Shown here: one piece after another, positions 385-720 of the stretch
How positions within the stretch are numbered: position 1 is the stretch's first letter
How the letters are laid out: the number at the start of each line of letters is the position of its first letter
Program-made: the position numbers and the translations under genes
The notes under the pieces: model-generated
Told to the model about the DNA's origin: nothing
What the model saw: only the letters and a program-made list of their open reading frames with translations
The model's database searches: none
Assembly: GCF_003334765.1 (NCBI RefSeq)
Contig: NZ_QOWT01000104.1
DNA: 720 nt
From: Escherichia coli
GTDB taxonomy: Bacteria; Pseudomonadota; Gammaproteobacteria; Enterobacterales; Enterobacteriaceae
Reading direction: 5' to 3' (one strand)

Positions 385-419
385 ATAAACGAAAACGCCA
401 GCCCTGTTCAGGCTGACGT
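385..419 (-). terminator. candidate Rho-independent terminator after the upstream minus-strand CDS
   Basis: Minus-strand RNA ACGUCAGCC[UGAACAG]GGCUGGCGU forms a 9-bp stem (one G-U wobble, 6 G-C pairs) with a 7-nt loop, followed directly by UUUCGUUUAU. It begins 28 nt after the TAA stop at 450..448. The plus-strand equivalent has a C-A mismatch and no T-tract, so the signal is strand-specific. Hand-folded; no energy computed. Confidence 0.4.
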
Positions 420-447
420 CAGTGGAATGAAGTATGGTGAGTGATAT

Positions 448-720
448 TTACCGGTTCTGGTGCAGAAGCTGCAGATGACGAAGAGTACGGACATCCTCCC
501 GGGCCTGTTCGATACAGGGCAACAGTGCTACCGAATCCGTTTTATCCTCATCGTTGTCAAAGATAATTCCCGATTCGCAGTCGATATTGTCCTGCAGCCA
601 CGCAATGAGGATATCCAGCGCTGTTTCAGTGGTTAATGGCATCACGCTCTGTATCACTGTATTGTCTTCCGGCAACTGATGAGGGCTGGCAGAAGTCGCC
701 GGTGTTTCGGTAGCGTCACG
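448..720 (-). CDS. hypothetical protein, C-terminal part (5' end probably beyond window right edge); Pro/Ser/Thr-rich segment followed by a strongly acidic ~64-aa tail
   Basis: Minus-strand frame with codons at plus positions 1 mod 3 is open from the window edge at 720 to TAA at 450..448. The track's TTG start at 675..673 is not a boundary: the frame continues upstream as ...RDATETPATSASPHQLPEDNTV.... Composition is protein-like and CTG/GAA/CCG-rich codon usage is typical of Enterobacteriaceae. Internal ATG at 642..640 has only a weak Shine-Dalgarno, so the true start is probably outside the window. Confidence 0.55.
   Translation of the reverse strand, partial: RDATETPATSASPHQLPEDNTVIQSVMPLTTETALDILIAWLQDNIDCESGIIFDNDEDKTDSVALLPCIEQAREDVRTLRHLQLLHQNR

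Follow-up and report, generated by a model that had tools for sequence, protein, structure and literature searches.

The stretch of DNA analysed here (the window) is 720 nucleotides (nt) of Escherichia coli sequence, studied in its setting at locus L001 of E. coli strain 300709, where L001 12448-12870 corresponds to window 448-870. Its minus strand, the sole coding strand, encodes an acidic segment that is a DUF957 domain: a two-helix hairpin of about 60 residues with an invariant FDND...T.S motif in the inter-helix loop. The window lies in the gene block that is conserved at the end of CP4-type integrative islands of Enterobacterales. The domain closes an open reading frame (ORF) for 140 amino acids (aa) that begins beyond the window, and we infer that the two-domain product is functional, as opposed to a dead remnant of yeeW with an independent small gene behind it. 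Our best guess at function is a dimerising partner-binding or regulatory module. The identification of DUF957 is made with high confidence and the mechanism is proposed with low confidence. Taken jointly (DUF957 in the island block, a functional 140-aa fusion, and partner binding involving the YeeW N-domain or the DUF4942 protein), this is the best explanation we have, and we give it an even chance.

The minus-strand translation of positions 448-720 is RDATETPATSASPHQLPEDNTVIQSVMPLTTETALDILIAWLQDNIDCESGIIFDNDEDKTDSVALLPCIEQAREDVRTLRHLQLLHQNR, followed by a stop codon. Proteins named DUF957 match the window protein with 88-98% identity over 97-100% of its length (E=1e-30 to 1e-34), and every match in a Foldseek search of AFDB is a DUF957 protein, with template modelling (TM) scores up to 0.97. 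An exhaustive search of 1.84 billion representative proteins returned 105 clusters at E<=0.001, among them longer proteins with the domain at either the N- or the C-terminus, and one protein with two copies. In the family alignment (numbered as in the 65-aa form), W16, F29, D30, D32 and S38 are invariant and L10, N20, N31 and T36 nearly so. The window protein conforms to the family signature, L..hh..WLxDN(I/V)......(I/L)IFDND...T.S..LLP, and has all of W16, N20, F29, D30, N31, D32, T36 and S38. Conservation in the family is highest at the acidic core, FDND(E/D)x.TxS.

The coding sequence is under constraint. Five distinct E. coli alleles, compared over the DUF957 part, give ratios of nonsynonymous to synonymous substitution rates (dN/dS) of 0.06-0.23, and in 15 E. 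coli-like alleles the variable sites fall 12/12/30 at codon positions 1/2/3 of the minus-strand frame. Two plus-strand ORFs (460-636 and 554-679) were accordingly treated as shadow ORFs, the variation tracking the minus-strand codon phase. An AlphaFold2 (AF2) model of the 65-aa protein, built from 30 sequences, is compact and confident (predicted local distance difference test, pLDDT, 93.2; predicted TM score 0.76). It has a helix at residues 6-22, an ordered loop bearing the acidic motif, and a second helix, balanced in charge, at residues 38-63. By all these measures DUF957 behaves as a genuine protein domain.

Current family libraries do not describe it. The 90 residues encoded in the window have no match in Pfam-A even at E<=10, and NCBIfam and PADLOC have none for the 140-aa ORF, DUF4942 or YeeW. 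Proteins consisting of DUF957 only carry no precomputed Pfam domain, and the Pfam model appears to have been withdrawn; the family is presumably the former PF06117. In PHROGs there was only a marginal match, to the N-domain (E=0.003). Searches of solved structures with the single sequence and with the family profile gave nothing meaningful, nor was similarity in fold to any solved protein found. An ancient duplication giving rise to both the YeeW N-domain and DUF957, suggested by a mis-alignment by MAFFT, was rejected by hhalign (probability 0.35%). Likewise, by-eye comparison with the EF-hand, the DxDxDG calcium loop and motif I of the haloacid dehalogenases (DxDxT) showed that the invariant F-D-N-D-x3-T-x-S fits none of them.

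A domain treated elsewhere is relevant here. AntiFam entry ANF00264, described as 'frameshifted phage proteins', has been reported to be a globular domain with a confident AF2 homodimer (interface predicted TM score 0.87), found next to DUF5983 and cbtA/cbeA in three annotation states (PMC13294457, Bioinform Adv 2026). The three states correspond to arrangements found in the present study, and ANF00264 is probably DUF957, a match made on descriptions of context and not on a comparison of sequences.

The sequence-only reading had drawn attention to a strongly acidic C-terminal end of about 64 residues, with 13 Asp/Glu against 5 Lys/Arg, behind a Pro/Ser/Thr-rich, linker-like stretch. The translation agrees exactly: the 64 residues from MPLTTE hold 13 acidic, 5 basic and 2 His residues, with an isoelectric point (pI) of 4.29 and a net charge of about -8, and the first 37 residues alone hold 10 acidic and 1 basic. 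Given E. coli proteome residue frequencies, the probability of 13 or more Asp+Glu among 64 residues is ~0.02, and that of a net charge of -8 or lower ~0.03. The bias of this one sequence is thus unusual, not extreme. The acidity goes beyond chance because it is conserved among homologues: pI is 4.05-4.7 in 27 of the 30 that were aligned, at identities down to 37%. The stretch before it, TETPATSASPHQ, is indeed rich in Thr, Pro, Ser and Ala, and it falls in a segment of the AF2 model of the 140-aa ORF (residues 48-77) where pLDDT is below 50, which is consistent with a flexible linker. The picture of a longer open frame that ends, after a flexible linker, in a compact acidic domain therefore stands. 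No housekeeping family was matched. What does not stand is the description of the protein as unrecognised, since RefSeq already names the 65-aa part DUF957 (WP_085949090.1) and the upstream part a truncated DUF5983/YeeW pseudogene. AFDB, too, already holds the 140-aa form (A0A2X7NJP3, 'CP4-44 prophage'), so that the sequence, the family name and the longer form are all in public databases.

The island of which the window is part has the gene order antirestriction, RadC/JAB, DUF987, cbeA, cbtA, yeeW (DUF5983), DUF957, DUF4942. The search for mobile-element hallmarks in the flanks that the sequence-only reading had advised finds them here: a CP4-type island with antirestriction, RadC/JAB, DUF987 and CbeA/CbtA genes, insertion sequence (IS) elements and integrase remnants. 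Many E. coli chromosomes contain the window sequence at 100% identity. Some part of it is matched in 4898 of 5426 complete E. coli genomes, at a median of 3 places per genome, and some part of the gene module is present in 4898-4924 of them, usually in 2-3 copies. The RefSeq features that lie under it in L001 are a DUF4942-domain gene (1-363), a 65-aa 'DUF957 domain-containing protein' (448-645) and, from 673 onward, a pseudogene labelled 'DUF5983 family protein, incomplete, missing C-terminus', that is, a truncated YeeW.

In L001 the DUF957 frame runs on past the end of the window to an ATG at window-equivalent position 870. The start of the resulting 140-aa ORF overlaps the stop of cbtA (ATGA), which suggests translational coupling. 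The ORF consists of the YeeW N-domain (PF25638), a linker of about 25 residues predicted to be disordered, and DUF957. The 720 bases of the window do not reach the N-domain. Over its first 50 residues the ORF shares 78-100% identity with YeeW N-domains, PF25638 is carried by P0001 (140 aa, 99% identical) and by other 140-aa homologues, and full-length YeeW matches it at E=2e-31. The C-terminal domain of YeeW, PF19419, is not in the ORF, and tblastn found none in L001; on alignment to the full-length gene, the window allele shows a gap of about 280 nt that equals this domain. The junction DNA occurs at 1045 places in 918 of the 5426 E. coli genomes, so that about one copy in 12 (1045 of ~12,600 places) has YeeW-N and DUF957 joined in frame. 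Each of the five distinct copies fetched (L001, L003/L023, L004, L022 and L024; 89-100% nt identity) has the 140-aa frame intact, and dN/dS of the N-domain in these alleles is 0.19-0.38. Protein clusters of the 140-aa form hold hundreds of members (e.g., 518 in P0019 and 297 in P0003). The window allele has no good Shine-Dalgarno sequence before the internal GTG/ATG, and the internal Met/Val start itself is retained.

In the commoner arrangement (L002 and others), a full-length YeeW of 163 aa (PF25638 plus PF19419) is followed 11-30 nt on by a free-standing DUF957. The latter is in a different frame from YeeW and has its own ATG, with a Shine-Dalgarno sequence (AGGA/AAGGA) 6-10 nt upstream. 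The fused architecture is found again elsewhere. Distant relatives of 134 aa (P0244), 121 aa (P0252) and 118 aa (P0255) also join an N-domain to DUF957. Their N-domains are 44-62% identical to the one in the window's ORF, the linkers are short and unrelated, and there is no Met at the domain boundary. Each of the three genes sits after CbtA and/or before DUF4942. We count these fusions as independent support. The fused gene of L015/L016 shares bases with the cbtA stop and is followed by DUF4942; L014 has both the fused gene and DUF4942 but no CbtA/CbeA. Serratia (L013) carries a free-standing DUF957 that overlaps the stop of a CbeA-like gene (ATGA), lies ahead of DUF4942 and has no YeeW upstream.

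Two of these loci show further rearrangement. At L015/L016 3774-4094 (GCA_000496755.2), PF19419 is a separate 106-aa gene between RadC and cbeA, where E. coli islands have DUF987 (yeeT); the modules YeeW-N, YeeW-C and DUF957 have therefore been shuffled between lineages. In Serratia sp. H1w (L013 3198-4198) the CbtA-like gene comes before the CbeA-like gene, opposite to the E. coli order, and PF19419 is found some 1.3 kb upstream, as the C-terminal part of an unrelated protein of 231 aa.

The other constant companion is DUF4942. It lies downstream of DUF957 in every island locus with enough downstream sequence, including L014 and the Serratia locus; in L027 and L031 insertions of about 1.5 kb separate the two. 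The DUF4942 protein matches PF13708 (E=5.5e-66) and has a near-neutral pI of 7.7. A PHROG of 548 positions that is annotated 'DNA methyltransferase' aligns with it over positions 81-287, and 'restriction methylase' is the name given to some database copies; no methyltransferase domain is present in the DUF4942 protein. No solved relative of DUF4942 was found, and a homologue search gave, among those listed, only close relatives and no informative domain fusions.

Between the two genes is a GC-rich, terminator-like hairpin. It is at the same place in 17 of 18 loci, including those of Enterobacter, Serratia and L015, and is missing in L014. It is kept down to about 50-60% protein identity (L012, L013, L015, L030 and L032), although what is conserved is mostly sequence, with little covariation. 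The hairpin may attenuate read-through into DUF4942. Rfam has no match on either strand of the window. As a separate observation, one arm of the hairpin and the coding sequence of the linker form a 15-nt inverted repeat (397-411 vs 676-690, 87% complementary; GCCAGCCCTCATCAG), and the hairpin arm of the distant loci L030 and L032 matches the linker 11-mer GCCAGCCCTCA at every base. This repeat may be chance or a hint on the origin of the linker, which also aligns with the 3' end of full-length yeeW (..DASAECLPG..).

Several considerations weigh against the joint explanation given at the outset. The AF2 model of the whole 140-aa protein is poor (pLDDT 57.7). Recombination with full-length yeeW copies that share a genome with the 140-aa alleles could have brought in the signal of purifying selection on the N-domain. 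In E. coli the 140-aa form has the look of a secondary derivative, made from the full-length gene by deletion, and could be tolerated rather than selected. A copy of the same allele has in fact decayed: the K-12-type yeeW of CP4-44 (64 aa; L040 2501-2863, minus strand) derives from the fused allele of the window by a nonsense codon in the linker (..SPHQLL, then stop) and a 93-nt in-frame deletion that removes the DUF957 core; RefSeq lists the remnant as a partial hypothetical protein. The terminator-like hairpin can also be read as splitting DUF957 and DUF4942 into different transcription units. Finally, DUF957-like domains on phage-like contigs have no DUF4942 within 5 kb, and partnership with DUF4942 is therefore not universal for the domain.

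The strongest competitor is the reading implied by RefSeq: the upstream part is a dead, truncated yeeW pseudogene, DUF957 is made alone as 65 aa from the internal GTG/ATG, and the in-frame join is accidental. PGAP annotates the loci in this way, and some 90% of E. coli DUF957 copies are free-standing after a full-length yeeW. The retained internal start, the deletion-derived look of the E. coli fusion and the decay of the K-12 copy favor it as well. On the other hand, a dead upstream part does not sit well with a frame that stays open, at the low dN/dS given above, in five distinct alleles. Moreover, the Shine-Dalgarno sequence that serves the free-standing genes is not present in the window allele, and in three distant lineages the two domains are obligately fused. 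We regard this reading as possible, and of less weight than a functional 140-aa fusion.

Concerning function, we favor a partner-binding or regulatory module because the conserved residues are specific polar and aromatic ones around the inter-helix loop and because the domain is repeatedly fused to other modules. In functional terms, gene order and fusion link it most closely to the YeeW N-domain and to DUF4942. In the scheme we propose, DUF957 would bind a partner, as a dimer, through the conserved W/DN/FDND/T.S surface. It would work with the YeeW N-domain, its repeated fusion partner, and probably also with the downstream DUF4942 protein, for instance in the role of a subunit that regulates or neutralises. 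The hairpin downstream of DUF957 would hold the expression of DUF4942 below that of DUF957.

A more specific proposal is that YeeW N-domain+DUF957 and DUF4942 are a two-gene module ending CP4-type islands, in which the acidic, dimeric DUF957 controls or neutralises DUF4942 in a toxin-antitoxin-like way, or in which the pair serves establishment or anti-defence. The DUF957 gene does lie upstream of the larger DUF4942 gene, and no antitoxin-type DNA-binding domain (ribbon-helix-helix, helix-turn-helix, AbrB or Phd/YefM) was detected in Pfam, NCBIfam or structure searches. We think this proposal rather unlikely.

Still less probable, in our view, is that DUF957 is a DNA-mimic anti-restriction or anti-defence protein in the manner of ArdA or Ocr, aiding entry of the island into a new host. 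The protein has the right general character, being small, acidic (pI ~4.1-4.7) and probably dimeric (PMC13294457), and the mobile island also holds a PF03230 antirestriction gene and RadC. However, conservation centers on the W/DN/FDND/T.S signature and not on diffuse charges, and the second helix is charge-balanced. No sequence or fold similarity to any solved protein was found, hence to no solved DNA mimic, and the genes strictly linked to the domain are DUF4942 and YeeW rather than the antirestriction gene. That the invariant residues are specific and polar, with no resemblance to solved proteins, favors a specific partner or ligand site over generic DNA mimicry. The lack of a match in PADLOC, a library of defence and not anti-defence proteins, has no bearing on this question.

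Programmed ribosomal frameshifting from the end of yeeW (DUF5983) has been proposed for ANF00264 (PMC13294457). In some alleles the DUF957 frame is indeed open far back over the yeeW 3' end, giving ORFs of 80-200 aa, and the databases contain many 'fused' proteins of 207-234 aa. The latter, however, contain yeeW read out of frame, as is typically produced by frameshift mutation or sequencing error. In many alleles the overlapping frame closes within 15 codons, and in others it varies. The free-standing DUF957 has its own ATG and Shine-Dalgarno sequence past the yeeW stop; in the Serratia locus it follows cbeA directly, with no yeeW to shift from; and in the window and in P0244, P0252 and P0255 the domains are plainly in frame. 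The frameshift idea is unnecessary, and we hold it to be very improbable. In L002, L010, L011 and others, the free-standing frame is open, depending on the allele, for 15 to ~135 codons upstream over the yeeW 3' end, and gene callers consequently emit 'DUF957' proteins of 80, 95, 143 or ~200 aa with out-of-frame YeeW sequence. Such calls are the likely source of the AntiFam label. That the ORF is spurious altogether, non-coding or a frameshift artefact, as the AntiFam listing with its 'frameshifted phage proteins' description (PMC13294457) and the absence of a model from current Pfam-A and NCBIfam would imply, is effectively refuted by strong purifying selection with a third-position excess, conservation to ~40% identity in several architectures including tandem copies, a confident compact model, and a conserved start with its Shine-Dalgarno sequence.

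The features of the window are collected in Table 1.

Table 1. Features of the 720-nt window and of the 140-aa protein that extends beyond it.
Feature	Position	Strand	Details
DUF4942-domain gene, first 121 codons	1..363	-	Full protein 280 aa; L001 11521-12363
Terminator-like GC-rich hairpin and T-run (GACGTCAGCCTGAACAGGGCTGGCGTT TTCGTTTAT)	394..420	-	Between DUF957 stop and DUF4942 start; 11 pairs
DUF957 coding sequence	448..645	-	Stop 448-450; RefSeq start GTG 643-645; in-frame ATG 640-642; (M)MPLTTETALDIL...LLHQNR, 65 aa
Acidic core FDNDEDKTDS	532..561	-	Residues 29-38 of the 65-aa protein, inter-helix loop; codons read from the sequence
Linker RDATETPATSASPHQLPEDNTVIQS, upstream in-frame continuation	646..720	-	Residues 51-75 of the 140-aa ORF
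Stretch of the 140-aa protein whose peptides would mark the fused product			TETPATSASPHQLPEDNTVIQSV

Around the window, the neighbors in L001 on the cbtA side are cbtA, a YeeU-family antitoxin gene, DUF987, a JAB/RadC gene, an antirestriction fragment and a truncated Ag43 gene, and copies of IS1 and IS3 and integrase remnants are close by. The island copy is heavily decayed at L001 9862-11191 and 14582-15521, where the truncated Ag43 gene, the antirestriction fragment and the IS1/IS3 insertions are found; at its DUF4942 end a 160-bp integrase fragment lies beside a cadC remnant. Despite this decay, cbeA, cbtA, the 140-aa ORF and DUF4942 are intact.

The DUF957-like domains of phage-like elements (39-49% identity) are parts of longer proteins, in L018/L019 (P0298), L033-L039 (P0295-like) and P0273, on phage-like or large-element contigs (77-110 kb in IMG/VR). 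Within 5 kb of them no CbtA or YeeW was found either. P0273 (281 aa) has two DUF957-like copies in tandem. The GenBank phage collection gave one DUF957 match only, on a 3.2-kb fragment; DUF957 is therefore not a typical phage gene. Many one-off chimeric ORFs among the database proteins (P0074, P0116, P0347, P0322 and P0356) combine DUF957 or DUF4942 with fragments of other genes of the island (antirestriction-linker-DUF957, CbtA-...-DUF957, CbtA-DUF4942 and GTPase-DUF4942), which points to frequent internal deletions in these islands. A cross-species scan of genome contigs gave only nine loci, six of them probably contamination. The latter (L005-L009 and L011), in records titled Lachnospiraceae or Collinsella metagenome-assembled genomes and Arthrobacter sp. 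GMC3, carry E. coli-type cbeA-cbtA-yeeW-DUF957 at 93-97% identity and are almost certainly Enterobacteriaceae contamination or mis-binning.

About 90% of E. coli genomes have some part of the module, which adjoins a toxin-antitoxin pair that has been well studied, and its annotation is poor: DUF957 is without a current Pfam model and probably AntiFam-listed, and PGAP splits the fused gene into a pseudogene and a small coding sequence. New here are the view of the fused form as a recurrent and probably functional architecture, the derivation of K-12 yeeW from it, the recognition of DUF957-DUF4942 as a constant gene pair, and the arguments against the frameshift hypothesis. Current understanding is not overturned; the recurrent fusion and the constant DUF4942 neighbor provide concrete candidate partners.

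In closing, we compare the 140-aa ORF and its acidic domain with known systems. DNA mimics (ArdA, Ocr) and the small acidic type II antitoxins are like DUF957 in small size, low pI, a likely dimer and a mobile-element setting, but no relation in sequence or fold to either was detected, and conservation in DUF957 centers on a polar motif. A DUF957-like domain is also the N-terminal module of longer proteins such as P0298 and P0262, which lie in runs of small same-strand ORFs without Pfam matches, resembling a phage early region. The similarity of P0298 to an Ead/Ea22-like mosaic prophage protein is weak (33% identity, E=1e-3) and outside the DUF957-like part, and CbtA, YeeW and DUF4942 are not among the neighbors. 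The type IV toxin-antitoxin pair CbtA/CbeA (YeeV/YeeU) belongs to the same operon-like block as the 140-aa ORF, with the ATGA overlap, and a genomic survey (PMC10790755) names DUF5983 as a candidate 'partner' of CbtA. The pair has no homology to the ORF, however, and N-domain+DUF957 and DUF4942 persist without it in L014. YeeW/DUF5983 of CP4-44 shares with the ORF the N-domain and the start overlapping the cbtA stop, whereas at full length it has the PF19419 C-domain, assigned to a glyoxalase-like fold in a preprint, in place of the linker and DUF957. Closest is the DUF957 family itself, including Aec78 of the pathogenicity island of E. coli AL862, which has in common with the window the length of 65 aa, the signature, and the place between yeeW and DUF4942. 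Its members are usually free-standing, whereas the window copy continues the frame of the YeeW N-domain and has no Shine-Dalgarno sequence of the usual kind ahead of its own start.

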